A DNA stretch of 32,000 nt from Bacillota bacterium (GCA_012735315.1 JAAYHS010000108.1:1-32000); one strand, 5' to 3'; shown: positions 7,244 to 26,546, counted from the stretch's first letter. Notes: a model not told the origin generated them from the sequence alone. Made by a program: numbers and translations.

Positions 7244-7891
7244 TCAGCCCGATTCTTCTTCCACCTCAAACTCCACGCTAACCGAATCAAAAACCCTGAA
7301 ACTTTTATCCGAAATGTTGATCTTAATCCGGTTGCCCCTAATGATTTCACCTTGAGGCCGGATCAACCTGGCGTTATTTTTTAACCATAATTCCTGAAGC
7401 CGATCATTATATTCGATGTTAACGGCCTCTCCGGTAAAATCCCGGTGCTCAATCCGGCAAGCCTGAGCGGTAAAATCCTTGGTGTCGGTTTCAAAGTATA
7501 ATTCTTCGGCGAATAATTTGAAGGGATCTTTGGCTTTTTGACCCTCGGCGGCCTTGATTCGATTCCGATTCATGACCACCTTCTTTTTAAAGGTTCCCAC
7601 TTTTTTTTTCAAATCATACTCCAGACCGTCGGCCTCAATTGTGACTTCGGGATGAGTCAGTTTCACCTTTGCTTCAAAGACGGCTTTTTTTTGGTCGGTG
7701 TCCACCTGGGCTCTTTCGGTGGTAATTACCGTTGTACCCTGGACGATGCGGACATCCCCCTCAAGGTAATTGATCTTTTTTTCCGTATCCCCCCATACGT
7801 TTTTACAGGTAACCTTGACTTCCTCCGCCGCGATGGCGATTCCGGCGCAGGCAAGCAATATTAAGATTAAACCGCTCCCAAAACGGTTCAT
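7244..7891 (-). CDS. lptA: Periplasmic LPS-transport protein LptA-like (OstA N-terminal-type beta-jellyroll)
   Basis: Signal peptide is MNRFGSGLILILLACAGIAIA. OstA-like repeats follow: YLEGDVRIVQGTTVITTERAQVD and FTGEAVNIEYND...LWLKNNARL. It shares a 4-nt ATGA-type overlap with lptC, and its context is downstream of lptD and lptC. Confidence 0.7.
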   Translation of the reverse strand: MNRFGSGLILILLACAGIAIAAEEVKVTCKNVWGDTEKKINYLEGDVRIVQGTTVITTERAQVDTDQKKAVFEAKVKLTHPEVTIEADGLEYDLKKKVGTFKKKVVMNRNRIKAAEGQKAKDPFKLFAEELYFETDTKDFTAQACRIEHRDFTGEAVNIEYNDRLQELWLKNNARLIRPQGEIIRGNRIKINISDKSFRVFDSVSVEFEVEEESG

Positions 7892-8526
7892 GGTTTAATT
7901 ATTCCCTCTTTTGGTTTAATCAGCCTGAATCTTTTTTCTTTTCTCCAATATCGCAGTCCTTCGGACCGGACAATATCCCCTTCTTGGATTAACTCCACAT
8001 TCCCCTCCAACAACACTTCCTCTTCCTCAAATTTCATCGTCATTTTATCGGCCGTAGCGTATAGATCTTTCTCGGTATATCGGACCGGCGAGAGACAATG
8101 CAATTCCTCGGTTTTGTACTTCATTACCGCCTTATCGGTGGTAAAAAATTCATCATCCCGCCAAGCTTCCAAACCGCCGCTGATATTCAGTTCTTCACGG
8201 GCTCTTTCCCAACGGGCCCAATTGGCTTTAAAATGAATCTCGCCATCATTCTCGGTATAAATTATCCCATGATTGATCTCTTCAAAATAAACCTGATTGC
8301 CGTCGGACGTTTCCCAGATCTTCGTTGCTTTGATTTTCCAGACCAACTCTTGATCGTCCCAGCCGGTGAGTACGCTATTATACATCACCGACGATGGATT
8401 CGAAGGCTGAATTTTATTAGTGGTCTCCGGCAATCCCTTAAAAAAAACTTCCCACCAACCGCCGATGAAACCCAAAGCGATGAAACCCGCCAAAACAGAA
8501 ATCCCAATCAGCGTTTTTTTACTCAT
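7888..8526 (-). CDS. lptC: Membrane-anchored LptC-like protein
   Basis: A single N-terminal TM segment (LIGISVLAGFIALGFIGGWW) precedes a beta-rich domain with an OstA/LptC-like segment, LLEGNVELIQEGDIVRSEGLRY. It overlaps the lptD stop by 8 nt and the lptA start by 4 nt. Confidence 0.6.
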   Translation of the reverse strand: MSKKTLIGISVLAGFIALGFIGGWWEVFFKGLPETTNKIQPSNPSSVMYNSVLTGWDDQELVWKIKATKIWETSDGNQVYFEEINHGIIYTENDGEIHFKANWARWERAREELNISGGLEAWRDDEFFTTDKAVMKYKTEELHCLSPVRYTEKDLYATADKMTMKFEEEEVLLEGNVELIQEGDIVRSEGLRYWRKEKRFRLIKPKEGIIKP

Positions 8527-10657
8527 AATTCAAAAGCTCCATTGGATTTTCAGCCGTATTGAATCTGGCCTGCGGGAAGGCTTTGAAAGTCAGCTGCAGC
8601 CAATATTGGCGTTCAATCCAATCATAATGGAATTCCACGTCCCGGCAGTGCCAGTTGTAGGTTAAACCCGCATTGGCGTTGGAAAAGTCGTCAATTAACA
8701 TATTATAGTTCATCCGCAGATTAACCTTCCAGTTCGGATTAAGCTGTTCGGTCAATTCCAAATCCAAACGTTTTGCAGACCACAATTGAGAGATGAAATT
8801 GTAATTTAAAGCAAGACTTAAACGCCAATCTTTGCGGGGCGTCGAATTAATACTCAGACTGGTTGTCCCAAACCCCGTATCATACCGGGGACCGTTATCC
8901 CAATAATAAATCGTTCCAAAATTAACCGAAGTGGAGTTGTAAAACAAACTTGCGCCGAAGTTGGCCGGGTATGCGTATTCCGTTTCAAAGTTATATCCGG
9001 TATTAAAATTAGCCCTAAATATTTTACCATTCCAATACCAATAATTCCAGATATCCGCGCCGGGTCTGATATCGTCGTTACCGGTAAAAAAGGTGTTTGT
9101 CAAACCTTGGACCTCGGTAAAACCCATCTTCACGGTTGTCGACAATTTGTCGGTGAAATTGTTCGTCAAATTTAACGATTCGGTTAACGCCCCGACCTCG
9201 GAAGGAATGTCGTTTATTACATAACTGCGACAGCGCAGTTGTATTTCATTCGTCAAACTCAACCGGCCTTTTGCCCAGAGACTATTGGTCTTCATAATAT
9301 CCAGGGCGGCCCGGTCCCCTTCGGTCGCAACGCCGGTATAAGTATTTAACGTTTCTTTATGGGTGTATTGGGTAGTCGTTTTAATCTTCCCTACCAGCGG
9401 AGCGTTTAATTGATGAATCGTGTAGGTAATATCCGGAAAGATGCTTTCATTGAGGGAAATATTTCTTTCCGACAGCTTAAAAGCGAGATCGGAATTGTCC
9501 CAGCGCTTAAATAAATCGAAATAATAATCCATCCTCGGTTCGTCATAACCTCTTCTTTCGCTGTCGAGCCATTGGCCTTTCAAGAAAATATTAAAAGTAG
9601 GATCAAAATAATACTCCCAACTCTGATCGAGATAGGTTTCCGGAAGGCCCAATTCCTCTTTAATGTCGTGATAAAACTTTATGTTGGGATAAGGAGACTG
9701 CCCTTTAAGATTTAACACCAATTCACTCTCGTAATAATTGTCCCCTTTATAAGTATACCGGTTCCAAGCATTGAGCCAAGCCTCGTAATTCATCTTCGGA
9801 TTAGTCCGATCTTCATACTTTAACCCCAACCGATAATCATCATTGTAATTACCGATTTTGTCGTTGTCCAAGAACTCGAAGGTTTCAGTAAAGGTCCTCG
9901 TCGGGGTAAGTTTGTTGATATGTTGCAATTCCCAGCGGTCAACGCCGTGTTCGGTGGTTTTATTACGAACCATTAAGGAATTAGAATTATTGTCGCTAAA
10001 GTAATATGTATACCACCACAGGAGCCACCATCCCTCGGAGTTATTCCACCCGACTTGCGCCCCAAAGTTGTTGCTGTCTTCCTCCAACGAAATAAATAGG
10101 ACCGGAAGATAAAACAACGGCACCCGGTGCTCCCAATACCAAACATGGTGCATTTTAATTCGATCGCCCGGCAGGTACTCAATTTTTTTGGCTGTAAAAT
10201 GATAGTGGGGTTTCTCCAGATCACATCCGGTTAAATATGACTTTTTAAAAAGGACCTCCTCGCTCTTTAAAAAAGCCTCGGCCGCCGTAAATATCAGCGG
10301 TTCCGCGATTTGATCGTCGATAACCTCGGTTACAACCGGATAAATCCATCCCCGTTGCGTTTCGAGGTAATATAAAAACCGGTCGCCGTTGAATTCGTCG
10401 TTTTCCTTAACCAAATATACATTTCCGGTCGCCAATAAAATGTTTTCCTCATGGTCGATGATGGCGTGATCGCACTCCACTCTGGTTTCTTTGTAACTGA
10501 TGCGGACATTCCCGTTGGCTTCAATCTGCTTGGTGTGATAATCGTAATAAATTTCATCAGCGGAAATAGTCACTCGGACCGTTTCCGCCCGGACGGGTCG
10601 CCCAAATACCGGCAACAAAAAAATTAGAATAACCGTAATCAAGTAACAAAAACGCAT
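8519..10657 (-). CDS. lptD: LptD (OstA)-like outer-membrane LPS-assembly protein
   Basis: Signal peptide, then an OstA N-domain (ISADEIYYDYHTKQIEANGNVRISYKETRVECDHAIIDHEENILLATGNVYL). About 550 aa of W/Y/N-rich alternating sequence follows, consistent with a large beta-barrel. Four mature Cys are present: two in the N-domain, one mid-barrel and one near the C-terminus. ATG is at 10655-10657 with an SD (TGAGG) overlapping the lptF/G stop region. Confidence 0.75.
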   Translation of the reverse strand: MRFCYLITVILIFLLPVFGRPVRAETVRVTISADEIYYDYHTKQIEANGNVRISYKETRVECDHAIIDHEENILLATGNVYLVKENDEFNGDRFLYYLETQRGWIYPVVTEVIDDQIAEPLIFTAAEAFLKSEEVLFKKSYLTGCDLEKPHYHFTAKKIEYLPGDRIKMHHVWYWEHRVPLFYLPVLFISLEEDSNNFGAQVGWNNSEGWWLLWWYTYYFSDNNSNSLMVRNKTTEHGVDRWELQHINKLTPTRTFTETFEFLDNDKIGNYNDDYRLGLKYEDRTNPKMNYEAWLNAWNRYTYKGDNYYESELVLNLKGQSPYPNIKFYHDIKEELGLPETYLDQSWEYYFDPTFNIFLKGQWLDSERRGYDEPRMDYYFDLFKRWDNSDLAFKLSERNISLNESIFPDITYTIHQLNAPLVGKIKTTTQYTHKETLNTYTGVATEGDRAALDIMKTNSLWAKGRLSLTNEIQLRCRSYVINDIPSEVGALTESLNLTNNFTDKLSTTVKMGFTEVQGLTNTFFTGNDDIRPGADIWNYWYWNGKIFRANFNTGYNFETEYAYPANFGASLFYNSTSVNFGTIYYWDNGPRYDTGFGTTSLSINSTPRKDWRLSLALNYNFISQLWSAKRLDLELTEQLNPNWKVNLRMNYNMLIDDFSNANAGLTYNWHCRDVEFHYDWIERQYWLQLTFKAFPQARFNTAENPMELLNYE

Positions 10658-10667
10658 TATTGCCTCA

Positions 10668-11744
10668 TTATTTCCGTTGTTCGGTTACTGCTAGTAAAAA
10701 AATGCCAATCATTAGAAAACAGAGGTTGGGCACCCAGGCCGCCGCCCACGGCGCGATTAACCCGTTCACTCCCATTGTCCTGCCGATTACTTGCAGGGCA
10801 TAATAACCCATAATGATTAAAAAACAAAGCACCAAACCCAGCCAGCGGGAATTGCGGCCGGTCACTACGGTTAAAGGCGTGGCCAAAAAAACCAAGGTCA
10901 AAGAAATGATCGGATCGGAAAACTTGGATTGATAAAAAACTTGGAACGCCGGGACATTCAAACCACTGCGCCTGTATAAATCGATCATCTTTAATAATTC
11001 CGTGGTCCGCATTTCATTTGGCCCCTTTTCTTCGCTGATAAACCCCCGATAATCCCTGCTCATCACCAATTCCATCTTTTCAAAAAAGAGTTCGGAACGG
11101 ATCGCGCCCTCTTCGTTAAATTCATGGATGAATCCCCGGTACAATTCCCAAATCCCTTTTTCCATCCGGCCTTGTTCCGCGGTAATAATCCGCGGCCATC
11201 TGCCCCCCGTCTCAATGATCAATACCCCTCCGATGATCCCGGTTTTCCGTTCGACTTTTCTCAAGTAAATAAACCGGTTTTGCGGCGCTTTAAAGACCAC
11301 ATTCTCCCTGAACAACGGAAAATCCTGTTTCACCGACATCCGCCGCAGTTCGACTTCAAAACGGTGATTAGCCGAAGGCACCACGTAATCATTCCAAAAA
11401 AATGCTGCGACGCAAATGATCGCCACGCCGACAAATACCGGCAGCATTATTTTCATCAGACTGACTCCGCTGGTCCGAATCACATCAAGTTCCCGCTCCC
11501 GAAGCATCCTGCCTAAAAAAAGGATTACCCCGAAAAGCGCCGCCGCCGGAATAACATCCATCAACAACGCCGGGATTTGGTTGAGTAAAAGAATCCCCAG
11601 TAATCGAGGAGTAACCCGGTATCCGATAAACAAGTCGTTATAATCGAAAAAGATCTTACCGACCCCTAAGGCGGTAAAACCAAGTCCGCAGATAAGAAAT
11701 TGTTGAATGAATTCATTCCAGACATATCGGTTTATTAATCGCAC
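10668..11744 (-). CDS. LptF/LptG-family LPS export permease (YjgP/YjgQ)
   Basis: MRLINRYVWNEFIQQFLICGLGFTAL... is a typical YjgP/YjgQ N-terminus. The topology is 3 TM, a periplasmic beta-jellyroll insert, then 3 TM. GTG start is at 11742-11744 with AAGAGG upstream. Only one paralogue is present in this window. Confidence 0.85.
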   Translation of the reverse strand: MRLINRYVWNEFIQQFLICGLGFTALGVGKIFFDYNDLFIGYRVTPRLLGILLLNQIPALLMDVIPAAALFGVILFLGRMLRERELDVIRTSGVSLMKIMLPVFVGVAIICVAAFFWNDYVVPSANHRFEVELRRMSVKQDFPLFRENVVFKAPQNRFIYLRKVERKTGIIGGVLIIETGGRWPRIITAEQGRMEKGIWELYRGFIHEFNEEGAIRSELFFEKMELVMSRDYRGFISEEKGPNEMRTTELLKMIDLYRRSGLNVPAFQVFYQSKFSDPIISLTLVFLATPLTVVTGRNSRWLGLVLCFLIIMGYYALQVIGRTMGVNGLIAPWAAAWVPNLCFLMIGIFLLAVTEQRK

Positions 11745-11825: not shown

Positions 11826-11850
11826 TAAAAAAGCGCCTCCGGCGCTTTTT
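11826..11850 (-). terminator. Rho-independent terminator downstream of lpxD (symmetrical, A-tract/T-tract flanked)
   Basis: AAAAAAGCGCC-tcc-GGCGCTTTTT. The stem is AGCGCC/GGCGCT at 11832-11846, with T runs on both strands. It separates the tamB..lpxD block from the lptFG-D-C-A block. Confidence 0.65.
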
Positions 11851-11973: not shown

Positions 11974-12999
11974 TTAAGGACAAACTCTTTTTTCCAAGTC
12001 CGCTACTTTCTTTTGAAGTTCTCTGAAATCTTTCAGCAGTTCCGGCAGGCGGCCTGCCGCCGCTTGGATCCGCATGTCTTGAGCATGAGGACGAGCCGGA
12101 ATGCCTGAAACATAAGAATTTGGCGGTAAACTGTTAATAACCATCGAATTAGCGGCAACCACCGAATCGTTCCCCAATTGGATATGGCCGACAGCCGAGG
12201 ACTTACCGGCCATAATGACGCGGTCTCCCAATTTGGTGCTTCCGGCGATGCCCACCAAAGAAATGATGATATTATCTTCGCCTATTTCGACATTATGACC
12301 GACTTGGACCAAATTATCGATTTTGGCGCCCCTTCTAACCCGTGTCACACCGGTGGTGGCGCGGTCAATGGTAACATTCGCCCCTATTTCCACATCATCT
12401 TCGATAATAACTTTACCCACTTGCGGGACCTTGTAATGTTTACCGTTTTCAGTGACATAACCGAATCCGTCGGCGCCGATTACCGTACCGGCGTGTATTT
12501 GGACACTGTTCCCGATCAAACAGTCTTCACGGATCACCACGTTGGAATGAATGACCGATTTGGCGCCGATCTGCACCCTGTCTTCGATTATCGCCCCGGG
12601 GTAAATAATAGCGCCTTCACCGATGGTCACGTCATTCCCGATAAAAACCAACGGACCGATTTCCGCGCCGGCCCCGTTAAAATTTTCACCGATAACGGCT
12701 GTGGGGTGGATCCCCGGCTTACAAACCCGCGGCGGATTAAAAAAAGCTAACAGCTGCGCAAAAGCCAGTCTGGGATTGGGGACGCGGATCGCCGGCTTGG
12801 ATGATTCGCCGACATTGGCGGGAACAATTACAGCCGCCGCCTTGCTTTGAAGAGCGGTCCCCAAAACACGCGCCGTTGCGGCCATGGTAATTTCACCGGG
12901 ACCGACGCTATCCAGCCCTTTAATCCCTTTGATTTCGATGTTTCCGTCGCCTATTACCTCTCCGGACACCAGTTTTGCTAAATCCTTTAATAGTGGCAT
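11974..12999 (-). CDS. lpxD: UDP-3-O-acylglucosamine N-acyltransferase LpxD
   Basis: The LpxD N-terminal domain is LAKLVSGEVIGDGNIEIKGIKGLDSVGPGEITMA. A long left-handed beta-helix of hexapeptide repeats follows (IGENF, IGPLVFIGNDVTIGEGAIIYPGAIIEDRVQIGAKSVIHSNVVI and so on), then a C-terminal helix. ATG has AAGGAG upstream and lies 29 nt after skp. Confidence 0.9.
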   Translation of the reverse strand: MPLLKDLAKLVSGEVIGDGNIEIKGIKGLDSVGPGEITMAATARVLGTALQSKAAAVIVPANVGESSKPAIRVPNPRLAFAQLLAFFNPPRVCKPGIHPTAVIGENFNGAGAEIGPLVFIGNDVTIGEGAIIYPGAIIEDRVQIGAKSVIHSNVVIREDCLIGNSVQIHAGTVIGADGFGYVTENGKHYKVPQVGKVIIEDDVEIGANVTIDRATTGVTRVRRGAKIDNLVQVGHNVEIGEDNIIISLVGIAGSTKLGDRVIMAGKSSAVGHIQLGNDSVVAANSMVINSLPPNSYVSGIPARPHAQDMRIQAAAGRLPELLKDFRELQKKVADLEKRVCP

Positions 13000-13028
13000 T
13001 GGTCTACTCCTTTACCATCATCGCTGAT

Positions 13029-13451
13029 TTATTGTTTATTTAATTCCCTGATTACATCTTCGGTAATATTGTAAGCGCAATACAGGTAAATCTGATCCGA
13101 GGCGACCGCCTTATACCCTTTTTGTTTGGCCACTTTTTCAATAGCCGTTCTCACTTTGGAAGTAAACTCCTTTTGTTTTTCTGCTTTATACCTTTCAAAC
13201 TCCAAGTTGATGGCTTGTTTTTCCTGATCATTTTTAGCCTTTTGAAACTTGGCGGATAAATCCTTCCCCTTGGCCTGGACTTCTTCATTAATCTTTTTGC
13301 TTAAATCACTCTGTTCCTCTATTTTTTGAATATCAACCGTGGCCAAATTAAATGAAAAAGCATTAACCGCCCAAATTAATCCCGTTAATAACAATAAGGA
13401 TCCAAGGATAATCGCTCCCGGCGCCAACCATTTATTTTGATTATTAATCAT
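13029..13451 (-). CDS. skp: OmpH/Skp-family periplasmic chaperone (copy 2)
   Basis: Signal/anchor segment, then ATVDIQKIEEQSDLSKKINEEVQAKGKDLSAKFQKAK...EFERYKAEKQKEF...IEKVAKQKGYKAV, the Skp-type pattern. Start is ATG 13449-13451 with GGAGG 7 nt upstream. The track's longer ORF overlaps the upstream gene. Confidence 0.75.
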   Translation of the reverse strand: MINNQNKWLAPGAIILGSLLLLTGLIWAVNAFSFNLATVDIQKIEEQSDLSKKINEEVQAKGKDLSAKFQKAKNDQEKQAINLEFERYKAEKQKEFTSKVRTAIEKVAKQKGYKAVASDQIYLYCAYNITEDVIRELNKQ

Positions 13452-13470
13452 TATTTTTCCTCCAAAAATA

Positions 13471-14358
13471 TTAGTCTTTATTTTGAAACCGGCGTAGTTC
13501 AATAGCTTGCTCCACTTCGCTTTGGCGTTGATCGATCCACTGCCTGAACTCATCAAATTGCCGGTTTCGAAAAAGATTTAATTCTTCAGTGATAAGCCGC
13601 TGCGATTCACGTCGCAATTCATTTACTTCACGGTGATAATCGGCGGTTCTTTGTCTTTCATAAAGCTCGTATTCATGCTCCAGTTCCCGCTTATATTCTT
13701 CCGTCTTTTTGATTATATCATTCCTGATTTGATTGATCCACCGCTCAATTCGCTCCGCTTCAGTTTGCTGATCTTGACTGTCGAAATTGAAGATGAGCAT
13801 CTTTTTTTGTAATTCTAAATTAATTATCGTCAATTGATGCTGTTTTACCAAGCTCTTACGGTAGTCATTCAATGCCTGATCGCGCCGTTTTTTTTCCAAA
13901 GTTAAATCCGCTTCGAACTTGGCTTTGGCCAGTTTTAAATTCTCGACCTCTTTCGCCCTATACTCCCGCAAAATTTTACGTTGATACTCGCGATAAGCCC
14001 GGTTCGTCTCCGACAGCTTACCCAAAATCTCTTCTTCATGGATCCGTTTAATCTCGTTAATTTGTTTTTCAACAGCCTCATTGATCGGATTCGTCAACTC
14101 TAAATCCGTTCGGGAATTAGGGTTAATATTTTTTTTTTCCCAACCCCGGCCTAAACTTGACAGTTTATCTCCGATTTTCCGATAACGCGACCATTCGGCG
14201 TCAAATTTATTTTTTTCGCTGATTAATTGCTGACTTTTACTAATAATGATCCGGTTTTCCGACTCAATTAAAAAATAACCAATCCAGAATAAAAATATTA
14301 AACTTAAACAACACCCGGCGGTTATTAACCACCATTTAAGCTTCTGATCCGGCTTCAT
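13471..14358 (-). CDS. N-terminally membrane-anchored, highly charged coiled-coil protein, unknown family
   Basis: One TM segment (WWLITAGCCLSLIFLFWIGYFLI) is followed by ~260 aa of E/K/R/Q-rich helical sequence with heptad-like character. It sits between two skp genes. It contains an A10 homopolymer at 14129-14138. Confidence 0.6.
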   Translation of the reverse strand: MKPDQKLKWWLITAGCCLSLIFLFWIGYFLIESENRIIISKSQQLISEKNKFDAEWSRYRKIGDKLSSLGRGWEKKNINPNSRTDLELTNPINEAVEKQINEIKRIHEEEILGKLSETNRAYREYQRKILREYRAKEVENLKLAKAKFEADLTLEKKRRDQALNDYRKSLVKQHQLTIINLELQKKMLIFNFDSQDQQTEAERIERWINQIRNDIIKKTEEYKRELEHEYELYERQRTADYHREVNELRRESQRLITEELNLFRNRQFDEFRQWIDQRQSEVEQAIELRRFQNKD

Positions 14359-14381: not shown

Positions 14382-14972
14382 TTATTTTTTTGAGTTTTTA
14401 CTCTCTTCTTCCGCTTGTTTTTTGGCTTTCTCGATTACATCCTTGGTTAAATCCTTGCCGCCGTGATATACCGCATTTTTGTCTAAAACAACGGATATAT
14501 TTTTATCATCGGCAACTTCGCCGATTAACTTCCGCACTTTATCCCAAACGGCCTGATCCTTTTGTCTTAGATAATTTTGAATCTCCGCAAATTTATCGGA
14601 CAATTGGGCGTTCAATTCCTCGCCCTTTTTCTTGATTTCATTTTGTAATTTCTTATCGAGCTCTGCTTTTTCAGCGTCTGATTTCCCGGCTTTCAGTTTG
14701 GTATACTTATTTTCCAAGTCTTTAAGATCCGTCTGGTGTTTCTGATATAGGCTCCCCCTGTACAAATTATATTCTAATTCTTTATCTTTGATTGTCTGTT
14801 GTAAACTCTGATAATCAGGCAATTCCCTGCGCAGCGTCTCCATGTCCACGTATCCGATTTTTACTGAAGCAGCGGAGGCGTCGGAATAATTACTAAACAA
14901 GATCATTCCTGTTAGCGCCACTATCCCCGCCATTAAAACTCCGATTAAGCGTCCAACTTTCTTCTTCAACAA
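14382..14972 (-). CDS. skp: OmpH/Skp-family periplasmic chaperone (copy 1)
   Basis: Signal peptide ending SDASAAS, then VKIGYVDMETLRRELPDYQSLQQTIKDKE...ELNAQLSDKFAEIQ...KLIGEVADDKNISVVLDKNAVYHGG, a typical OmpH pattern. TTG start is at 14970-14972 with AAAGGAG upstream. Confidence 0.8.
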   Translation of the reverse strand: MLKKKVGRLIGVLMAGIVALTGMILFSNYSDASAASVKIGYVDMETLRRELPDYQSLQQTIKDKELEYNLYRGSLYQKHQTDLKDLENKYTKLKAGKSDAEKAELDKKLQNEIKKKGEELNAQLSDKFAEIQNYLRQKDQAVWDKVRKLIGEVADDKNISVVLDKNAVYHGGKDLTKDVIEKAKKQAEEESKNSKK

Positions 14973-18418: not shown

Positions 18419-19066
18419 TTATTTCCCACTCCGCAAACTGCGTGAAGCCTCTATATAAAGGGCTTCTTCATCGATGGTAAACTGCGATGCCCGGCGCAAC
18501 CGGACCGGGTTTTGAAGGTTTTCCGGTTTAGCTCGATCTTGTTTTGTTTCCACAGCTATAGCGACAGAAGAATCGGGTTCGGATTCGGGTTCTATTTTGT
18601 CTTTTGCGGCATGACTGACCGGTTTAACCGAATTCGCGGGTTGCTTTTGAACCGCCGCCGACTCGTCTACATTTAACTGACTATTATCGGAAGCGAGTTT
18701 CAACTCCGAATCGAGGATAGCTTTTTTCTCGGACCGCTCAAAGACGCCGGTTAAATATTTATGGAAATTATCCCTTTGGAACCCGAACAACAACCCGAAA
18801 AACACCAAAATCGAGGCGGCGACGGCCACCAAGTTTTTAAACTTACGCTTGGGAAGGCTGGTCTGTTTCTTTGAAACGTATCTTCCGCGACTAAGTTCCC
18901 AAACATGTTTAACTTCGGCCTGGGCTAAGTTTAAAGTCATTTCGGCATGAACCGGGTTCGCCTGTTTATAATATTCGCTGGCTTTGTCAAGCCATCCCTT
19001 GGCGTCTTCAATATGTTCGATTAATTTTTCCGTTTCAAAACGGCTGTCGTATTTTCCCACCTTCAT
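18419..19066 (-). CDS. Single-pass membrane protein, unknown family (candidate sigma-factor partner / anti-sigma)
   Basis: A ~75-aa helical cytoplasmic N-domain is followed by a KRKFK stop-transfer, a TM segment (LVAVAASILVFFGLLFGF) and a ~115-aa low-complexity periplasmic tail. There is no HxxxCxxC zinc motif. It lies 182 nt downstream of the sigma gene. ATG is at 19064-19066 with GAGGGTGAGG upstream. The function is inference from architecture and position only. Confidence 0.55.
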   Translation of the reverse strand: MKVGKYDSRFETEKLIEHIEDAKGWLDKASEYYKQANPVHAEMTLNLAQAEVKHVWELSRGRYVSKKQTSLPKRKFKNLVAVAASILVFFGLLFGFQRDNFHKYLTGVFERSEKKAILDSELKLASDNSQLNVDESAAVQKQPANSVKPVSHAAKDKIEPESEPDSSVAIAVETKQDRAKPENLQNPVRLRRASQFTIDEEALYIEASRSLRSGK

Positions 19067-19085: not shown

Positions 19086-19122
19086 CCTCATTATTTAAGA
19101 TCGCTTAATTGAGGTTTTTTTT
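19086..19122 (+). terminator. Terminator-like hairpin + T8 on the plus strand (antisense to the local genes)
   Basis: CCTCA..TTAAG-atcg-CTTAA.TGAGG (19086-19114; 5+5 bp with an internal loop) is followed by TTTTTTTT at 19115-19122. On the minus strand the same hairpin is followed only by AUUAUUAU. Confidence 0.3.
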
Positions 19123-19180
19123 GTACATCAATATAAAGGGAAATTTGGGCATCTGGCTTTAAAATATTCGCCTTTCTTTA

Positions 19181-19248: not shown

Positions 19249-19893
19249 TTAGCTTTTAGCCTTAATCTCCGCTCTAAGCTTGGACAACATCCCCCGCAGC
19301 CTTTGCAAGGCTTTTTTTTGAAGTTTATAAAAATAAGAAAGACTAATATTCATTTCCTGAGCGGTAGCGCTCGGTTCCTTATCCAATAAATATAAATCAT
19401 AAATCACCTTTTGTTCCTTGGGGTTTAGCCGTGAAATCGCCTGATTTACCTGTTCGTTGATGATCCCGGCGGTTACCTCTTCCTCTACGTTTACCTGTTT
19501 ATCGGCGAATTGGGCCAAAAAATCTTCAACCGCGTCTTCATAAACAGCCACTTCCAACGCGTCTTGATATGACCGAAGCCGTTTTAGATAATCGATCATC
19601 CGGCCCCGAATCCGACGGGAGGCAAAAGTGCTAAAGCGCACCCCGAATTCATAATTATAGTTTTCGACCGATTCAATCAGACCAACCGTTCCTTCTTGAA
19701 TCAAATCGAAAATTAATTCTTCATGGCAGGTTATTCGAGAGGCGATCTTATAAACCAACGGTTGATAAGACTCGATTATCCGCTGACGCGCTTCTCGAGA
19801 ATTCTCGACTTTAAACTTGGTCCATAAGAGCCGTTCCTCCGACCGCGAAAGCAGTGAAATTTTAGATAATTCAGCCAAGTAATCCTGGATCAA
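19249..19893 (-). CDS. Sigma-70 family RNA polymerase sigma factor, group-3-like (FliA/SigF-type), not ECF
   Basis: Region 2 is YQPLVYKIASRI...DLIQEGTVGLIESVENYNYEFGVRFSTFASRRIRGRMIDYL. The DLIQEG..GL and FST(F/Y)A..IRG motifs are characteristic of groups 1-3. Region 4 HTH is LNPKEQKVIYDLYLLDKEPSATAQEMNISLSYFYKLQKKALQRLR. The protein is only 214 aa with a short acidic region 3. TTG start is at 19891-19893. Confidence 0.85.
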   Translation of the reverse strand: MIQDYLAELSKISLLSRSEERLLWTKFKVENSREARQRIIESYQPLVYKIASRITCHEELIFDLIQEGTVGLIESVENYNYEFGVRFSTFASRRIRGRMIDYLKRLRSYQDALEVAVYEDAVEDFLAQFADKQVNVEEEVTAGIINEQVNQAISRLNPKEQKVIYDLYLLDKEPSATAQEMNISLSYFYKLQKKALQRLRGMLSKLRAEIKAKS

Positions 19894-20038: not shown

Positions 20039-23000
20039 TTAAAATCTAAACCGATAAGTGAGCCGCCATGAAGTCTCCTCTTCCTTGGGAAAACTCCCTC
20101 CGACGATCAAATTTGAGGTCAGATAATACTCCAGCTCCCATTTTTCCTTCGGTTGATCGGATAAGGAACGGCTATACGATAAGAACAGCCCATCGGAGAC
20201 ATATTCCCCCAGGTTAACCCGAAACTCATCTTCAATAAAATCACGTTCCAGATATAAATAATCCAAATCCAAAGCTTGGCGCAGTTCATAAAAGACTTCG
20301 CCGAAAACGGTGTCCGTAATCATACTCAAGTTCGTAGTAGCGACGCCTTTCACGGTTAACGGTTTGTCGCCCCGCAACTCCGACCAGTTCAACATCGCGA
20401 ACAAGTCCTCCTCGGCTAACGGAGGATATGAATAGAGATTAATCGCCAGATTTTCCCCAATTTGCCCTTTCACGGTTAAGATGACTTCCGCCGCCGGAGT
20501 CGACATCCGGGAATCAACATCGATGTAAGGATTAAAACCTTGAGAAAATTTGAAGGCGGCTTTAGCATTCTTCACTTTAAACGTTTGCCCGTAAAGAGTC
20601 AATACCCCTTTATCGGAATTGGCCTCGCCGCTGATCAAAGGCTTTTGAAGGTCTCCTCCGATCCGCAGGTCGCTTTCAACTTCAATATCAGCCAAACCTA
20701 TCTGCCGATACCTGACATTTTTGCCTGTTGTCACCCTAAGATCGAAGCTGGGGTTCCAAGCAATGCTCGAAGCCTTTTCCTTGGAGATTTTTAAAATGCC
20801 GACCTTGGTTTCAAAGAGACGCACATCCCCTGAAAGCTTCGAATCGGCCGGTGTACCGGACAATTGCAGCTTAGCGTCGGCATATCCGTCAAAATAGTTA
20901 TTGCGGTAATATAGTTTGGAACCGTCCAAATTGAGATCGAAATGCAGTTGGTCTTCTTCCCCGAATAATAAGAGTTCGCCGTTTAAAGTAAACCGCCCGT
21001 TTCCATAACCGCCTCGCGCTTGTTGAATCGAAATTCGGTTACGCTCGATTTCCACTGCCGCCCGCATGTTGGTAATGGGCAACGGTAAATCGGAGACGGC
21101 GATTCCGATGTTGGTCGCTTCCAGATTGCCGGAGAATACCGGCCATCCATACCTGCCTTGTATTTTAAGATTACCGTTGACCAAACCGTTGGTAACCGTA
21201 ACATTTTCGGGAAGATAAGAGTTAATAATCTCCAGTGAAGTATTTTTAAATCCAAATTCCAAATTAATGCTTCGAAAAACGGCGCCGGAATTATCCGACC
21301 GCTTCATTATGGAAAGAAACTGCTCCGGCCATGGCAAATAACCGTGGGCGCCGACGGATCCGTTTTTAGTGTTTAAGATGCTCTCACTAATGTAAAATCC
21401 TTGCTCCTTAAAATTTCCCCGTAATTGAAGATCGCCGAGACGATTCCGATTTAGGGATAACCCGTTTACCTTAGCTTGGGTTTCTCCGAAAATTCCAGCG
21501 CTCGACCATGTTAAATCCGATTCAAGATCAATAGCCCCATCAAACTGGAGATCGGGACCTAAAAATGAACCGAAAGGCGCTAAGGAAAAATCCTTCGCGT
21601 TTATTTGAAGTTTTGAAACCGAATCCGGTTCCCAGACTCCGGTCGCCAGCAAACTGCCCGAATATTGCCTGAGTTTAAGCTGTTTGAGCAGGAGCCGTTT
21701 GTTTTGATAACCCAATTCGAACTCCCCTTCAACGGGCGCCCCGCTAAAAACGGCCTTGGTCAATTCCCCGTCAATATTAATTACCGGTTGATAGGGGTCT
21801 CCGGTGATGTTGATTAGCCCCTCAAGTTTCCCCTCGGCGTCAAAACCGGAAACACCTAATACCTGACATAGCTTGACGAGGTTAAGATCGCTGACGTCAA
21901 CCGCCAAATCCAGTCTTAGCTGTTTGTTAAACCCTATCACGCCGTCGATATTAACTTGAAAATCCTCGCCCCCCAAATTAATCCGGGATATTCTTATTTC
22001 CCGCTCTTTCCAATCAACGGCGCCGGAGTAAATCTCGCCGGAAAACGGCCCAAACAACACTTTTCCGGATGAAATCTCAGCCTCGAATAAAGGGCGGGCG
22101 GGTTTGCCGAGCAATCTCCCTTCCAAATCAAATCGTCCCTGAAGTGTGGCGCCTTTGAATTCCAATCCCAACGAATCAAAACTAATCCGGGTACCCTTCA
22201 AATTAAGATCTAAATTATCACGGTCAACAGTTCCCGAAATTTCGATAACGGAATCGCTATCCGTCAATACCATCCGGTTGAGATTGATTTCCCGGAAATT
22301 CCCTTCAAATTGAATTGCGCCGCGCTCCATCTGAAAGTTCCCCACGCTGGGACCGTTCAAAAATATATGAGCCGTGTAATTGGGATTTTCGATTGGACCA
22401 AAAAATTCAAAATTTAAGGTTCCCGTTCCTCCCAACCGCAGTGAAGGGTCAATCGGCAACCATTGCATAAACCCGTTCAGTTGAGCGTTGTCACTATTCA
22501 TGGTTAGGTTAACGTTGGGTTGCGCCGCCAGATCAATACGGCCCTTAACCGAGTAATCGCCCGTTTCGGAAGCCACTTGAAGCGCGTTAATATCAAAGCC
22601 TTGATCCGTATATTCAATACTGCCGGTTATCTCTCCCAACGGTTTCGCTAAATAGGTGGTTTGTTTAAGCGAACATTGAATCTTGCCTTTCAGATCCGAC
22701 AACGGTCCCTCAAATTCAAAGAGACCGTCGAACACTCCATCAACTGAATACTTGCGGGCAAGCGGCGATAAATCGCTCAACTGTACCCGTTCGGCGTTAA
22801 AACCGGCGGATAGTCTTTGAAAGTCCCAAGCGAGATGGCCATAAATCCGTCCCCGCCCGGCCCGGGCTTGGATGGAATCCACCAGCAACTTGTGATCGGT
22901 CCAAGTAAATACCCCTTGAATGCTTTCCAAACCGATTTTTTCATGGTTGAAATTTTCACCTTTAAAAGTTCCCAGAATCGTTCCCGGATCAAATATTTCC

Positions 23001-24712
23001 CCTGGTTTCCATTCCCCTTTTAAAATGGCATTGGTCGAAATTTTACCGCCGATACCGGTTTCCATACCGAACTTGGTGCGCGCTAAGTTCAAGTCGGCCA
23101 ATTCTCCGGAGACCTTCCATTCAACCCCCTCGGAACTAACCTTAACCGTTCCCTTTGCCGTAAGATTTCCGTCCCCGGTCACGCCTTCCAGCTTGGAAAT
23201 TTGAAGGGAATTGGTTAATGAATCCCAGTTCAAGAAGGTTTTTAAATTTTCAAACCGCAGATCTTGATATTCGAGTTTAGCGATTTGTAATTCGCCGGAT
23301 ACCGTAGGAGTCCATAATTCGCCGCTAACTTTGCCCTTAAAATCAACTTTTTGATCAATCTTCAAACCCGGTGGAACAGGAAGGCCGTATTCGGCGAAGT
23401 CGATCCCGACGGCCTGAACGTTGAGATTATAAGTCGGAGTCAAAATATTGGCGATGCTTCCCGTCACGCCTATCAAGGTATCGCCGAGGTAGCCCTCGAT
23501 TTTTTTAATTTCTAAATCATTATTAATGATTTTGGTTTGTCCGGTAAGTCGCTTAACCCAAAGGTTCGGACCAATCGCCAACTCCGCCCCGTTAAAAGAC
23601 AGTTCTCCGTTTAACAGCGGCCGATCAAGATCCCCGGAAATATCGACCCGTAAATTAGCCGAACCTTGGAGTTGATAAGGGAGCAATTTCGGAAAAAATT
23701 TTGCGAAATCGGCCAAATTAACCCGTCTTCCGCTCAGAACGCCGTTGATCGCGGTCGTCTTCGTATCAAGCTTCCCTGAAACCTTCCATAATGAATTATT
23801 GTAAATGAGATCCGCGATATTAATCTTCAGTTCGAAAGGGGAGATTTCTCCGTCTAATTCCCGGACGTCCAACAGCCCGAGACCGTCCGGTAATTCCAAT
23901 TCGGTCCCGGTCAGCCTTATCGCGCCGTTTTCCAACCAAAAACCATCCTTATGCCAACCGAACTTCACGTCAAATCCGCCCACTCCTTTAATAACTTCGA
24001 TCGAATAAGGAGCCGGAATAAACGGCGCGATTTTGTCGAGTACCAGATTAGCAACTGTTATTTGGGCATGCCCGTTTTTAAAGTCGAGGGGGGCTTCACC
24101 CCGGCTGCTCCAACGGCAATTATTATTAAGATCTGAAATGCCGTTACAATCCCAAGTCACGATACCTTTTGAATCAAACCGGACGCTGCCGTTGACTTCG
24201 GAAAAATTATATTTTCCGTATCCTTCATCTTCCAGTTTGATCGTTCCGTTTTTAACCGAAAAAACCGTGTTCAAACGTAACTTTCTTTTGCTTCCGGTAA
24301 AATAATTCTTCTTTAGATCCCAGGTCCCATCCTTGAATCGTTTTAAATGAACCGAGGCGTCGATTAATTCCACCTTACGCAGCGCGCTTTCGGGATTTCG
24401 TCTATTTTTTAATAGCGCCAATAAATCGATGTTCAAGTTGACGGCGCCGGCTTGAAAAGGAATAATTCCTCTTTTCTCATCCTTTAATTGAACCTTGGAG
24501 CATTTAAAAAACCCCCACCCCGACCAATGAATATTCTCAATCTCTATTATCAGCCCGGTCTTCTTCAAGTTTTTTTGAAGGTTATTCCTTATTTGGGCGG
24601 TCAAAACCCGGTCTTGCAATAAAAAAAAGGGCAAAGTGTAAAATAAAGCCCCGATTACCACGAGGCTGGCCGTTAACCATAATCCAATTTTATTCGGAAT
24701 AATCTTCTGCAA
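20039..24712 (-). CDS. tamB: TamB / AsmA-like translocation and assembly module protein (DUF490-type C-terminus)
   Basis: An N-terminal TM anchor (IGLWLTASLVVIGALFYTLPFFLL) precedes ~1500 aa of repetitive beta-rich sequence (many GxLxLxG, NL.L.G and DL.G.I motifs). The C-terminus is ...GLFLSYSRSL...WELEYYLTSNLIVGGSF...WRLTYRFRF. I prefer TTG 24710-24712, which has GGGAGG 7 nt upstream. The track uses TTG 24727. Confidence 0.8.
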   Translation of the reverse strand: MQKIIPNKIGLWLTASLVVIGALFYTLPFFLLQDRVLTAQIRNNLQKNLKKTGLIIEIENIHWSGWGFFKCSKVQLKDEKRGIIPFQAGAVNLNIDLLALLKNRRNPESALRKVELIDASVHLKRFKDGTWDLKKNYFTGSKRKLRLNTVFSVKNGTIKLEDEGYGKYNFSEVNGSVRFDSKGIVTWDCNGISDLNNNCRWSSRGEAPLDFKNGHAQITVANLVLDKIAPFIPAPYSIEVIKGVGGFDVKFGWHKDGFWLENGAIRLTGTELELPDGLGLLDVRELDGEISPFELKINIADLIYNNSLWKVSGKLDTKTTAINGVLSGRRVNLADFAKFFPKLLPYQLQGSANLRVDISGDLDRPLLNGELSFNGAELAIGPNLWVKRLTGQTKIINNDLEIKKIEGYLGDTLIGVTGSIANILTPTYNLNVQAVGIDFAEYGLPVPPGLKIDQKVDFKGKVSGELWTPTVSGELQIAKLEYQDLRFENLKTFLNWDSLTNSLQISKLEGVTGDGNLTAKGTVKVSSEGVEWKVSGELADLNLARTKFGMETGIGGKISTNAILKGEWKPGEIFDPGTILGTFKGENFNHEKIGLESIQGVFTWTDHKLLVDSIQARAGRGRIYGHLAWDFQRLSAGFNAERVQLSDLSPLARKYSVDGVFDGLFEFEGPLSDLKGKIQCSLKQTTYLAKPLGEITGSIEYTDQGFDINALQVASETGDYSVKGRIDLAAQPNVNLTMNSDNAQLNGFMQWLPIDPSLRLGGTGTLNFEFFGPIENPNYTAHIFLNGPSVGNFQMERGAIQFEGNFREINLNRMVLTDSDSVIEISGTVDRDNLDLNLKGTRISFDSLGLEFKGATLQGRFDLEGRLLGKPARPLFEAEISSGKVLFGPFSGEIYSGAVDWKEREIRISRINLGGEDFQVNIDGVIGFNKQLRLDLAVDVSDLNLVKLCQVLGVSGFDAEGKLEGLINITGDPYQPVINIDGELTKAVFSGAPVEGEFELGYQNKRLLLKQLKLRQYSGSLLATGVWEPDSVSKLQINAKDFSLAPFGSFLGPDLQFDGAIDLESDLTWSSAGIFGETQAKVNGLSLNRNRLGDLQLRGNFKEQGFYISESILNTKNGSVGAHGYLPWPEQFLSIMKRSDNSGAVFRSINLEFGFKNTSLEIINSYLPENVTVTNGLVNGNLKIQGRYGWPVFSGNLEATNIGIAVSDLPLPITNMRAAVEIERNRISIQQARGGYGNGRFTLNGELLLFGEEDQLHFDLNLDGSKLYYRNNYFDGYADAKLQLSGTPADSKLSGDVRLFETKVGILKISKEKASSIAWNPSFDLRVTTGKNVRYRQIGLADIEVESDLRIGGDLQKPLISGEANSDKGVLTLYGQTFKVKNAKAAFKFSQGFNPYIDVDSRMSTPAAEVILTVKGQIGENLAINLYSYPPLAEEDLFAMLNWSELRGDKPLTVKGVATTNLSMITDTVFGEVFYELRQALDLDYLYLERDFIEDEFRVNLGEYVSDGLFLSYSRSLSDQPKEKWELEYYLTSNLIVGGSFPKEEETSWRLTYRFRF

Positions 24713-24869
24713 GGTTTTTCCTCCCAAAAGGGCTTACTCCGGAACCTATCGCCTGAAATAACCGATTAATGATTAATAATGTTACGCAGCGTGATTACAA
24801 CTTATAAGTCTTTACGGATACTCGCGGTTGCTGTTTAAGCCCGCTTGCTTAATCCGTCAACCGGGGAGT

Positions 24870-26546
24870 TTAGATGATTTCCAAGTCAAATTGGGCTTCC
24901 CCATGAATACAATAAGTAGTATCCACTTTTTGATTGATCTCCTTTTTTAAATTCCGGTCGTCGCTTCCGGAATCTTCATTGAGCTGGTATTCCAATACAA
25001 CTTGATTATTTTTGGTTTCATTCAGAAAATCGTTAATCAGTTCATCCAAGGAAGCGGCTTTTTTCGACCCCGTTTTTGAAGTGTCCGGTTTGCGTCCTTC
25101 ACTCTCCGCTTCCAAAAAAACATTGGCCGTTCCATGGGCGGATATTGTCAGCTTTCCCGGTTCAATATTGCTCGGCAATTTGATTTCAAAAGGAATAGTC
25201 AGATTTTGACCGCGAAATGTACGGGCGACGACCTGCACTTTAACAACGCTCCCCGGTTTGACTTTTGAACGGTCGGTTTCAATCTTGATGATTCTTGCTG
25301 AAGCCTGCTTTTCTTGAACATCAACATTGACTTTTACCGATTTAACGGTTAATTGGAGAAACTCGTTGGCGGCCAGCAAATCTAATAAATCCCGCAAGTC
25401 CTTAAGACATGAAACAGCAATGTCTTTCCCGTAAAAATAATTCTCCCGGATTATCGATTCCCGGTTTTCCAACTCAATTTGGAGTCGGACCACGGCGGTT
25501 CCGCTGCCAACCCGGTCAATGGTTTGATCAATGGCGTCGGTAACTCCCGATATGATCAAATCCCGGTAAAGCTGCTCATTCTGAATCACTTGAAAAGAAA
25601 AACCACGTTCCAAATCACGGTCTAAATCCCTGACAGTCACCGCTACCGGAATTAAGGAGGGATATTCGCCGAATTTCCCCAAAATACCGGGCTGTCGATC
25701 CTCGATAATCCTGCCCGCGATTTGTAACGGCAATCCAAGTTTAAAAGACATCACCGGACTTTTAACGGTATGTAAAATATGGGCTTGAAAGGCGAGATAA
25801 TCGACTTTGCCTCTATTGGTAAACGAATGACCGAAGGCAAGAAAATAATCATCCTCAACCAAAGTCACCGTTCCAATCGCTGCCACCTGATAATCCCCGG
25901 AAACCATTTGAACCGCCACCGCGCTCCCCGGCTTAAGAGTCACAAAACCGGAATCAAATTGCTTTTTCTTGGAACCAAAAAAGAAAACCGGCTTAAAATT
26001 ATACGGTTCCAAAGCCTTCTTGAAACTCTCGAAGCCGCGCCTTCCCGCCCCGGAAATGACCACCGGGGTAATAACCGGTTTGAAAATTAGTCCGTCTTTT
26101 AAAATCAATGGTCTTCCCGCGGCTAAGGATTTTTTTTCGGAGGCGGGAAGCATTTTTAACATATTTTCGATCGGCGTCACCAACGCCAGGTATGAATCGG
26201 CGTTTTCAAACCCGTAACTAATGGCGCCCACTAATCTTTTTTTAATATAGATGGGGCTGCCGCTCATTCCCGCGGCTAATCCTCCGCTTTTTTCGATGAT
26301 TCTTCCCGATAATTTTACTAAGATCAGTTTATCGCTCCAGGTGTCTCCCTCGACCACCGCCAATACTTCAGCGTTAAAACGTTCGATCTTCGTTCCGGAA
26401 AATACGGAATAACCGAAGCCTTTCATGCCCGGTTCGACTTTTTCCAAAGGATAAAAAGCATCTTTAGCCAGGGCAAATTGAGAGCCAACCACTATCAAAA
26501 AAAGCGTCAAACTTATGAATATCGTTCGGCGTCGCCACAAGTTCAA
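24870..26546 (-). CDS. Secreted SpoIVB-type (MEROPS S55) serine peptidase homologue with long C-terminal extension
   Basis: Signal peptide ending QFALA. The segment GFGYSVFSGTKIERFNAEVLAVV...EKSGGLAAGMSGSPIYIKKRLVGAISYGFENADSYLALVTPIENML matches my recollection of the SpoIVB C-terminal Ser-motif region (GGIVQGMSGSPII.NGKVIGAV). A later segment, AAIGTVTLVEDDYFLAFGH (residues 222-240), resembles the SpoIVB His-motif region. TTG start is at 26544-26546. Confidence 0.65.
   Translation of the reverse strand: MNLWRRRTIFISLTLFLIVVGSQFALAKDAFYPLEKVEPGMKGFGYSVFSGTKIERFNAEVLAVVEGDTWSDKLILVKLSGRIIEKSGGLAAGMSGSPIYIKKRLVGAISYGFENADSYLALVTPIENMLKMLPASEKKSLAAGRPLILKDGLIFKPVITPVVISGAGRRGFESFKKALEPYNFKPVFFFGSKKKQFDSGFVTLKPGSAVAVQMVSGDYQVAAIGTVTLVEDDYFLAFGHSFTNRGKVDYLAFQAHILHTVKSPVMSFKLGLPLQIAGRIIEDRQPGILGKFGEYPSLIPVAVTVRDLDRDLERGFSFQVIQNEQLYRDLIISGVTDAIDQTIDRVGSGTAVVRLQIELENRESIIRENYFYGKDIAVSCLKDLRDLLDLLAANEFLQLTVKSVKVNVDVQEKQASARIIKIETDRSKVKPGSVVKVQVVARTFRGQNLTIPFEIKLPSNIEPGKLTISAHGTANVFLEAESEGRKPDTSKTGSKKAASLDELINDFLNETKNNQVVLEYQLNEDSGSDDRNLKKEINQKVDTTYCIHGEAQFDLEII

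Follow-up and report, generated by a model that had tools for sequence, protein, structure and literature searches.

The region considered here extends from position 7244 to position 26546 of a 32,000-nucleotide (nt) stretch of DNA from an uncultured Bacillota bacterium (GCA_012735315.1 JAAYHS010000108.1:1-32000), the whole of which is referred to as the window. With a probability that we place at about 0.8, this region is the core of the conserved outer membrane (OM) biogenesis locus of the diderm Firmicutes, encoding the machines with which the OM is assembled rather than a signalling cascade. All of its large open reading frames (ORFs), 14 in number, are found on the (-) strand, just as a preliminary description made from the sequence had given their order and coordinates. 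Read 5' to 3' they encode an S55-domain protein, TamB, a sigma factor, a 215-amino-acid (aa) protein, BamA, a 430-aa protein, Skp, a 295-aa protein, a second Skp, LpxD, LptF/G, an LptD-like protein, LptC and LptA. The identities of these genes come from Pfam and NCBIfam scans of the ORFs of the window, with the exception of the 215-, 430- and 295-aa proteins, which match no model in either collection.

The diderm Firmicutes represent the main test case for the gain or loss of the bacterial outer membrane and, to our knowledge, they are without BamB-E, TamA and the Lol accessory proteins. Any conserved extra gene within the locus is for this reason a candidate for a missing part. A large conserved OM locus was described in the Negativicutes and Halanaerobiales by Antunes et al. 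(2016, eLife), and its contents include TamB and BamA, as many as three homologues of Skp, lipopolysaccharide (LPS) genes and several conserved unknowns (PMC5007114). In Acetonema longum the two conserved genes that flank bamA have been named in a study that describes a sonB-bamA-sonA-skp1 operon and predicts a promoter for it (Nat Commun 2026, PMC13018214). The window carries the features by which this locus is recognised, with a co-oriented TamB-BamA-Skp(n)-LpxD core and LPS transport genes in a Bacillota host, and the core order is likewise present in Halanaerobium, Sporomusa and A. longum. The closest named relatives are the Negativicutes and the Halanaerobiales. A metagenome-assembled genome (MAG) labelled 'Firmicutes/Bacillota bacterium' has deposited proteins (GX075 locus tags, on a 42-kb contig) to which the S55 protein, the sigma factor and the proteins of 215 and 295 aa are identical.

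What, then, are the four proteins (S55, 215-aa, 430-aa and 295-aa) for which the preliminary description could give no role and which it took to be lineage-specific components? Related genomes show synteny with tamB/bamA for all four, so that their place in the locus is upheld, and all four have counterparts in the Negativicutes and/or the Halanaerobiales. They cannot be called lineage-specific, since two of them correspond to SonA and SonB, a third is a paralog of Skp and the fourth is the ortholog of Vpar_0521 of Veillonella parvula. Comparison across lineages sorts the unknowns into separate modules: the S55 protein belongs to the head of the locus, the sigma factor travels with SonB and SonA as one unit, and the coiled-coil protein of 295 aa joins the Skp set.

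This comparison draws on 84 loci, which were gathered from (i) the neighbourhoods of S55 homologs, (ii) the neighbourhood of the Sporomusa homolog of the 430-aa protein, and (iii) a scan with the sigma-factor alignment over one genome per GTDB species, and which were annotated by tblastn and family hidden Markov models (HMMs). Most of the loci were found through the sigma query; the unbiased set comprises the seven lineages anchored on S55, four of which have the sigma factor, SonB and SonA and three of which have none of them. Wherever the sigma gene is located between those for TamB and BamA on a contig of sufficient length, SonB and SonA are also present (63 of 63 loci), and the order is TamB-sigma-SonB-BamA-SonA-Skp-CC-(Skp)-LpxD, where CC stands for the coiled-coil protein. 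The sigma gene is conserved in place between tamB and sonB, which bears out its earlier description as a resident of the cluster, and in these 63 loci SonA is directly downstream of bamA and upstream of skp. The sigma-bearing loci come from the window lineage (~18 species-level MAGs), the Sporomusaceae, Dendrosporobacter, the Selenomonadaceae (Mitsuokella, Selenomonas, Centipeda) and an independent MAG lineage, L081. In Halanaerobium saccharolyticum (L003, L004), L082 and L005, TamB is directly beside BamA and all three module genes are missing. The module is also lacking in V. parvula, where TamB (Vpar_0526), BamA (Vpar_0527) and three Skp genes (Vpar_0528-30) follow one another (PMC5491611). 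Partial modules were not seen among the loci examined. The genes for the sigma factor, SonB and SonA are thus inherited together as a single module, which is placed between tamB and skp and is separate from S55.

The preliminary description had seen in the secreted protein, the single-pass 215-aa protein and the sigma factor the ingredients of regulated proteolysis in a self-regulating OM assembly module, in the manner of DegS/RseA/sigma-E or SpoIVB/pro-sigma-K. On such a model the S55 protein would cleave the periplasmic tail of the 215-aa protein, acting as an anti-sigma factor, and so release the sigma factor. In the window lineage and L081 the three genes do share one co-oriented cluster, the S55 protein combines a signal peptide with an invariant Ser/His/Asp set, the gross topology of SonB (a conserved cytoplasmic N-domain, one transmembrane (TM) helix and a periplasmic tail) is that of a membrane anti-sigma factor, and another part of the diderm-Firmicute locus is reported to have a conserved COG0750 (RseP-like) gene (PMC5007114). 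However, Halanaerobium, L005, L082 and V. parvula, from which the sigma factor, SonB and SonA are absent, all keep the S55 gene as the head of their cluster, and the proposed cascade is unsupported for that reason. Conversely, in 23 sigma-containing loci an S55 gene was not found within at least 5 kb upstream of tamB, and none was found at the cluster head in Mitsuokella, a result that applies to cluster-linked genes. Furthermore, SonB has no Pfam or PDB similarity to anti-sigma domains, the sigma factor is nearest to FliA and to the group 1-3 factors and has no pro-sequence, the sigma and sonB genes are separated by 100-300 nt that contain a promoter-like motif and are thus not co-transcribed, and no RseP-like gene for a site-2 protease is present in the window. 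Release of the sigma factor by the S55 protein is on this evidence very unlikely, and the locus is better read as a collection of assembly machines.

Full-length S55 homologs are found at the locus head in every lineage class sampled. In the window lineage, as in Halanaerobium, L005, L081 and L082, nothing separates the gene from tamB, which it precedes; in Sporomusa, L080, L083 and A. longum it is upstream of mlaEFD-tolC-tamB. A query for the Negativicutes form of the protein gave, among the matches listed, Sporomusaceae-type proteins only. The window protein is the ortholog of A. longum F7NM31, with which it shares 35% identity over 524 aa (E = 3e-97), and of Vpar_0521. The assignment of F7NM31 to the cluster head is made because the accession order and the A. 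longum locus itself agree: each accession of the series corresponds to one gene in the order, with F7NM22-24 as SonA, BamA and SonB, and with F7NM27 and F7NM28 as TolC and MlaD. Poppleton et al. (2017) found Vpar_0521 in the OM proteome of V. parvula and reported it as a protein of unknown role whose N-terminus carries a SpoIVB domain and which diderm Firmicutes conserve well (PMC5491611), and F7NM31 is one of only two proteins found to co-elute with BamA (PMC13018214).

In the window the S55-domain protein consists of 558 aa (24870..26546, (-) strand), and the Pfam Peptidase_S55 domain is matched by residues 47-116 only (E = 3e-11). A signal peptide, read directly from the sequence, ends in ALA, with KD following. 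Ser95, within the segment GMSGSP, aligns to the site of Ser378 in SpoIVB (S378A in PDB 9lnf), in a G-x-S-G-x-P motif. This serine is invariant in 53 S55 homologs together with Asp218, His240 (LAFGH) and Asp283, which makes catalytic competence plausible, and the protein is probably a secreted, catalytically competent serine-protease-like protein. In SpoIVB the catalytic histidine of the N-terminal barrel, His236, comes before Ser378 (PMC12502668). In the window protein no such His precedes the Ser: only ~65 residues are located between the signal peptide and Ser95, and the sole invariant His, His240, comes after it. No PDZ domain is matched in Pfam, and the SpoIVB equivalog model TIGR02860 scores the protein at 40.9 bits, as compared with a cutoff of 305. 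The protein is thus an S55-domain protein and not a SpoIVB ortholog. A likeness of the His-bearing half to SpoIVB would have pointed to a circular permutation, but this half, searched against the PDB with phmmer and with a 22-sequence profile, gave no match to SpoIVB. The AlphaFold2 (AF2) model (pLDDT, a confidence score, of 86) contains two six-stranded beta regions, and may represent a circularly permuted chymotrypsin-like fold. The protein also has ~270 residues of additional beta-rich domains.

With SpoIVB (MEROPS S55), the protease of the Bacillus subtilis sigma-K checkpoint, the window protein has in common the Ser-bearing active-site segment (GMSGSP as against GMSGAP) and secretion across the cytoplasmic membrane. 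Beyond the differences in PDZ content, residue order and score, it occurs in non-sporulating species too, and the cluster contains neither a pro-sigma substrate nor a SpoIVFA/BofA context. Could it nevertheless be a sporulation paralog of SpoIVB, engaged in remodelling the OM of the spore and not in vegetative OM biogenesis? The shared active-site segment would fit with such a role, as would the proximity of the gene to spoIID-spoIIID in L005, L080 and L083. Its presence in V. parvula, which does not sporulate and in whose OM fraction the protein is detected (PMC5491611), speaks against a spore function, as do the shortfall against the SpoIVB cutoff, the missing PDZ domain and the opposite order of Ser and His, and we consider such a role to be most improbable.

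The sigma factor itself (19249..19893, (-) strand) is a compact member of the sigma-70 family, 214 aa in length with regions 1.2, 2 and 4, as identified from the Pfam Sigma70_r2 and r4 domains. It is not like the extracytoplasmic function (ECF) factors, it is without a pro-sequence, and its orthologs, of 212-215 aa, lack a full region 3. Orthologs in Sporomusa and A. longum show 44% identity over the full length. In A. longum a sigma gene for 215 aa is located between tamB and sonB (L084:11099-11746), which by accession order should be F7NM25, and in the Negativicutes the gene is 15-35 nt from tamB and 100-300 nt from sonB. No NCBIfam equivalog cutoff is reached; the FliA model demands 189.6 bits and the protein scores 73. 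Among solved structures FliA is the closest (E = 1e-16), and region 2 of SigA and of RpoS comes next. Database labels are those of a generic sigma-70-family protein, although one submitter's automatic annotation calls the Sporomusa ortholog FliA. In five Selenomonadaceae species a cluster-type sigma gene (HMM E ~1e-93) is found in a different place, between LptC-RmlD and a ROK-family kinase (L044:9995-10615, L047, L051, L054, L078); this is an LPS context, with no SonB beside it.

The gap between the sigma gene and sonB contains a promoter-like motif, recognised by phylogenetic footprinting. In the window it reads ACAAAA-N16-GATCTTA (19124..19096, (-) strand, within a promoter-like feature marked at 19092..19128), and its -10-like element ends 29 nt before the ATG of the sonB-like gene. 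Across the sample the footprint is CCA(R)AA-N16-GAnnAT(A/T) with fixed spacing, and is present in ~34 of 59 loci, from the window lineage, the Sporomusaceae and part of the Selenomonadaceae. It was found with an anchored pattern and a position weight matrix (PWM); an unanchored two-block Gibbs sampler run on the same gaps converged on terminator and ribosome-binding-site features and not on a promoter. The motif does not fit the spacing of sigma-A, and it agrees with the promoter predicted for sonB-bamA-sonA-skp1 (PMC13018214). In sigma-less lineages it was not found upstream of bamA. When the cluster was scanned with the PWM, consistent sites were found upstream of sonB only, and a 19.4-bit match inside lpxD (12302..12266) was discarded as it is not conserved and falls within the range of shuffled sequences. 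The preliminary description had suggested looking for promoter motifs shared between sub-operons; the sole conserved motif is confined to the position ahead of sonB.

This motif is compatible with recognition by the neighbouring sigma factor. Alternatively, the sigma factor might be a passenger or a general alternative sigma, for instance a flagellar FliA-like one, with a position that reflects nothing other than inherited gene order. The FliA label and the FliA structure match would agree with this, as would the presence of flagellar P/L-ring genes in the wider Negativicutes locus, the single motif site in the cluster and the relocation of the gene in five species. Set against these are the score far under the FliA cutoff, the short length with an incomplete region 3, and the presence of the gene in Mitsuokella, a genus described as non-motile. 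Moreover, the gene is lost along with SonB and SonA, not with flagellar genes, and even the relocated copy remains among LPS genes at LptC-RmlD. A passenger role is unlikely.

The 215-aa protein (18419..19066, (-) strand) is SonB-like on the basis of BLASTP, which matches it at E = 1e-8 to the gene that occupies the SonB position in Sporomusa, and of a family HMM. The family comprises more than 60 orthologs, 60 of which share a conserved N-terminal block. From these 60 four parts can be distinguished: a conserved N-terminal helical domain of ~60 aa, a basic stretch with one TM helix, a Pro/Ala-rich periplasmic linker that is variable and disordered, and a conserved C-terminal motif. The TM helix of the window protein spans residues ~78-96 and, because a basic stretch precedes it, the protein is predicted to be an inner-membrane anchor with its N-terminus inside and its C-terminus outside. 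No N-terminal signal peptide or lipobox is present in the window protein, and no lipobox is seen across the 60 orthologs. This differs from the proposal made for A. longum SonB (F7NM24), likewise a protein with a TM helix, that it is a lipoprotein of the OM (PMC13018214). The tail ends in a conserved motif of ~15 aa, with a consensus of QKL...AGKSLR, which in the window is EEALYIEASRSLRSGK (18419-18480) and which could be a docking peptide. With its place directly upstream of bamA, its single predicted TM helix and its homology to the Negativicutes proteins in the SonB position, the 215-aa protein matches SonB, and the 430-aa protein on the other side of bamA matches SonA, both as judged by sequence comparison.

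Might SonB be the anti-sigma factor that partners the cluster sigma, spanning the membrane and acting without the S55 protein? SonB would then sense the status of the OM or of the beta-barrel assembly machinery (BAM) through its C-terminal motif and tune the expression of sonB-bamA-sonA-skp. The predicted topology is as it should be, with the most conserved segment in the cytoplasm, a single TM helix and an exported C-terminus, and the conserved promoter motif is directly upstream of sonB. In all 63 cluster loci, which include deeply diverged lineages, SonB is adjacent to the sigma factor. The idea is retained, as a tentative possibility that we would not call probable, because the two are strictly adjacent and are lost together. 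When 17 members of the family were compared with Pfam, and a profile with the PDB, nothing was found beyond TM and low-complexity noise, so that homology to known anti-sigma domains is not detected. Equally, the sigma and sonB genes belong to different transcription units, with the sigma gene close behind tamB in the Negativicutes, the sigma gene is away from sonB in five species, and SonB is co-expressed with BamA and was interpreted by its discoverers as a component of the BAM operon (PMC13018214). A fuller version of the same idea would have the F7NM25-family sigma as a dedicated OM-biogenesis factor that transcribes sonB-bamA-sonA-skp from CCA(R)AA-N16-GAnnAT(A/T), with SonB as its anti-sigma, reporting on BAM/SonA status through the C-terminal motif, and with the S55 protein, in those lineages that have it, perhaps also trimming SonB. 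We hold this to be doubtful, but if true it would represent an envelope-sensing circuit without sequence similarity to sigma-E/RseA.

The preferred reading of the locus as a set of assembly machines assigns a part to each component. TamB is the intermembrane bridge for lipids or OM proteins (OMPs), BamA the OMP insertase and SonA a small TamA-like Omp85 protein. The three Skp-family chaperones, the middle one of which is elongated and membrane-anchored, are further machines of the locus, along with LpxD and the Lpt bridge. The sigma factor would drive the non-sigma-A promoter ahead of sonB-bamA-sonA-skp. The S55 protein would operate in the periplasm on or with BAM and TAM (translocation and assembly module), in quality control or maturation, and would not be a dedicated generator of signals.

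Several points weigh against parts of this picture. The tie between the motif and the sigma factor is an inferred one: a second copy of the motif was not found in the cluster, the held-out lineage L081 shows the -10-like half only, the Centipeda-type loci show nothing, and in the five Selenomonadaceae species mentioned above the sigma gene is situated elsewhere, away from sonB. The role suggested for the S55 protein draws on genomic association and on the co-immunoprecipitation of F7NM31 with BamA, which amounted to three peptides and was not treated as an interaction by the authors (PMC13018214). The His-bearing half of the protein is without detectable similarity to SpoIVB. Finally, sigma-less lineages are few, with three in the sample and V. 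parvula from the literature, since the sigma factor was the usual query.

The large envelope proteins of the cluster are more readily assigned. TamB (20039..24727, (-) strand) is an AsmA-like, envelope-spanning protein of 1562 aa that is matched by the Pfam TamB domain (E = 2e-39), with DUF748 and YhdP matches at the N-terminus. For comparison, TamB is ~1450 aa in the Negativicutes and 2515 aa in the sigma-less locus L005 (12229-19776). BamA (16486..18318, (-) strand) has the Omp85 domain (E = 8e-37) and three POTRA domains in Pfam, and also matches TIGR03303 (E = 3e-65). The SonA-like protein of 430 aa (15094..16386, (-) strand) is a small protein of the Omp85 type, as indicated by its AF2 model, by Foldseek and by its Sporomusa carbonis homolog. 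Besides a signal peptide, the model (pLDDT 86) has a beta-alpha-alpha-beta-beta unit repeated three times and, at the C-terminus, ten strands that end in MFHF, and its best PDB matches in Foldseek are TamA (E = 8e-12) and BamA. The protein in the same position in Sporomusa carbonis matches at E = 6e-33, and the family HMM reaches E-values down to 1e-175 in the Selenomonadaceae. A. longum SonA (F7NM22, 426 aa) combines a 10-strand barrel with three POTRA domains, and is reported to insert spontaneously into liposomes (PMC13018214).

Downstream of SonA is the first Skp/OmpH chaperone, of 196 aa (14382..14972, (-) strand; Pfam OmpH, E = 7e-18). This is followed by the 295-aa protein (13471..14358, (-) strand), an elongated, TM-anchored, Skp/OmpH-like coiled-coil protein identified with hhalign and a family HMM, and by the second Skp/OmpH chaperone (13029..13451, (-) strand; Pfam OmpH, E = 2e-10). 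The longest ORF of the latter extends to 13556 and overlaps the coiled-coil gene by 86 nt, an overlap that arises because the longest ORF was taken. The likely true start is the ATG at 13451 (MINNQNKW...), inferred from the signal peptide that follows Met36 of the longest ORF, which leaves a gap of 19 nt.

The 295-aa protein aligns to the Negativicutes proteins of the same position with an hhalign probability of 95.6% (E = 1e-8), a score that coiled-coil composition may inflate. Its family HMM matches a Halanaerobium protein of 295 aa at E = 3e-44 and bona fide Skp ORFs as well, with the same caution over composition. The window protein has no match to Pfam OmpH, and within its lineage one protein in ten does so (E = 7e-4), as compared with nine of 14 Negativicutes counterparts (up to 4e-8), where the middle Skp-like proteins start with a Skp-like GVIDMDKA..HP motif. 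On account of these profile links, the OmpH matches of the counterparts and the HMM matches to Skp ORFs, the 295-aa protein is classed by sequence as a divergent, elongated, membrane-anchored Skp paralog, the middle one of the 'three Skp homologues'. The form of the anchor varies: the middle protein is a lipoprotein with an L-x-G-C lipobox in the Sporomusaceae (L001:11975-12922, L025, L029, L030, L063), and has an uncleaved TM helix in the window lineage and the Selenomonadaceae.

LpxD (11974..12999, (-) strand) scores 352 bits in NCBIfam, above its cutoff. The gene is followed by an intrinsic terminator (11827..11846, (-) strand), a perfect hairpin AGCGCC-GGA-GGCGCT with a T run and a dG of -12.8 kcal/mol, which confirms the terminator noted earlier at this place. 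A scan with a consensus terminator missed this site and gave a total count not above that of shuffled sequences. Beyond the terminator come the LptF/G permease (10668..11744, (-) strand; Pfam LptF_LptG, E = 2e-81), an OMP of 712 aa (8519..10657, (-) strand), LptC (7888..8526, (-) strand; Pfam LptC, E = 1e-11; TIGR04409 above cutoff) and an LptA-like periplasmic bridge protein (7244..7891, (-) strand; Pfam LptD_N/LptA, E = 1e-13). The 712-aa protein had been put down as LptD, and its position and architecture fit; its match in sequence is a weak one at the N-terminus (OstA/LptD_N, E = 1e-4), and it is referred to as LptD-like by position and architecture for this reason.

Some features of the surroundings and of individual loci may be added. 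Just upstream, and on the strand of the cluster, are the genes for an S33-like alpha/beta-hydrolase and for a PD40 beta-propeller protein that is TolB-like (26900-29082), and in L006 a homologous hydrolase gene also precedes that for S55, with a TetR gene between them. The GC skew is negative throughout the window (1-32000) and nearly all genes are on the (-) strand, which is consistent with the whole window being on one replichore with genes co-oriented with replication. The Centipeda/Selenomonas loci L070, L072, L074, L075 and L076 (~14.6-17.6 kb) have ~3 kb of extra genes between sonA and the first skp. Contigs named 'Bacteroidota bacterium' or 'Patescibacteria group bacterium' (L011, L030; P0003, P0098, P0124) hold Firmicute-type clusters, with sigma identities of 82% (L011) and 44% (L030), and the L011 and L030 contigs are probably mis-binned or mislabelled MAG contigs.

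What goes beyond the searchable literature is the co-variation of sigma, SonB and SonA, the independence of the S55 protein from this module, and the predicted topology of SonB as opposed to its lipoprotein label, all of which are leads that come from genomic inference. The sigma factor is mentioned nowhere in the searchable literature on the locus, including the main text of PMC13018214, and both it and the partly conserved non-sigma-A promoter motif ahead of sonB appear to be unreported. A sigma factor beside sonB would give a direct handle on the control of bamA expression in diderm Firmicutes.

How, finally, does the locus compare with known systems? The arrangement brings to mind that of Escherichia coli, where rseP-bamA-skp-lpxD lie together and the DegS/RseA/RseP pathway controls sigma-E, in that the neighbourhood of bamA-skp-lpxD encodes a periplasmic serine protease together with a sigma factor and a membrane protein of the single-pass type. 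Here, however, the sigma factor is non-ECF, an anti-sigma domain is not recognisable, the window has no site-2 protease, and the cluster-linked protease and the sigma factor do not co-occur across lineages. With the TamA/TamB system of Proteobacteria the locus shares TamB, and SonA finds its best structural match in TamA, which is an Omp85 protein and has three POTRA domains; the SonA barrel nevertheless has 10 predicted strands in place of 16, and SonA has no Omp85 or POTRA match in Pfam. Closer still is the sonB-bamA-sonA-skp1 operon of A. longum (PMC13018214). The gene order is shared. The 215-aa protein has its conserved N-terminal domain and its one TM helix in common with the genes in the SonB position, and the predicted architecture of the 430-aa protein, with three POTRA repeats and a 10-strand barrel, is shared too, although sequence identity is ~25%. 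The sigma gene upstream is common to both, and is not discussed in that paper.

The nearest likeness of all is to the locus of Antunes et al. (2016, PMC5007114), with which the window has in common the TamB-BamA-Skp(x3)-LpxD core tied to LPS genes, the S55/SpoIVB-domain gene at the head and the Bacillota host. It differs in that it comes from an uncultured lineage outside the coverage of that study and in that LptF/G-LptD-LptC-LptA follow directly after lpxD. As in the Halanaerobiales, the S55 gene directly abuts tamB, without mlaEFD-tolC between them; as in most Negativicutes, the sigma-SonB-SonA insert is present. The arrangement in the window is a hybrid of Halanaerobiales-like and Negativicutes-like features.

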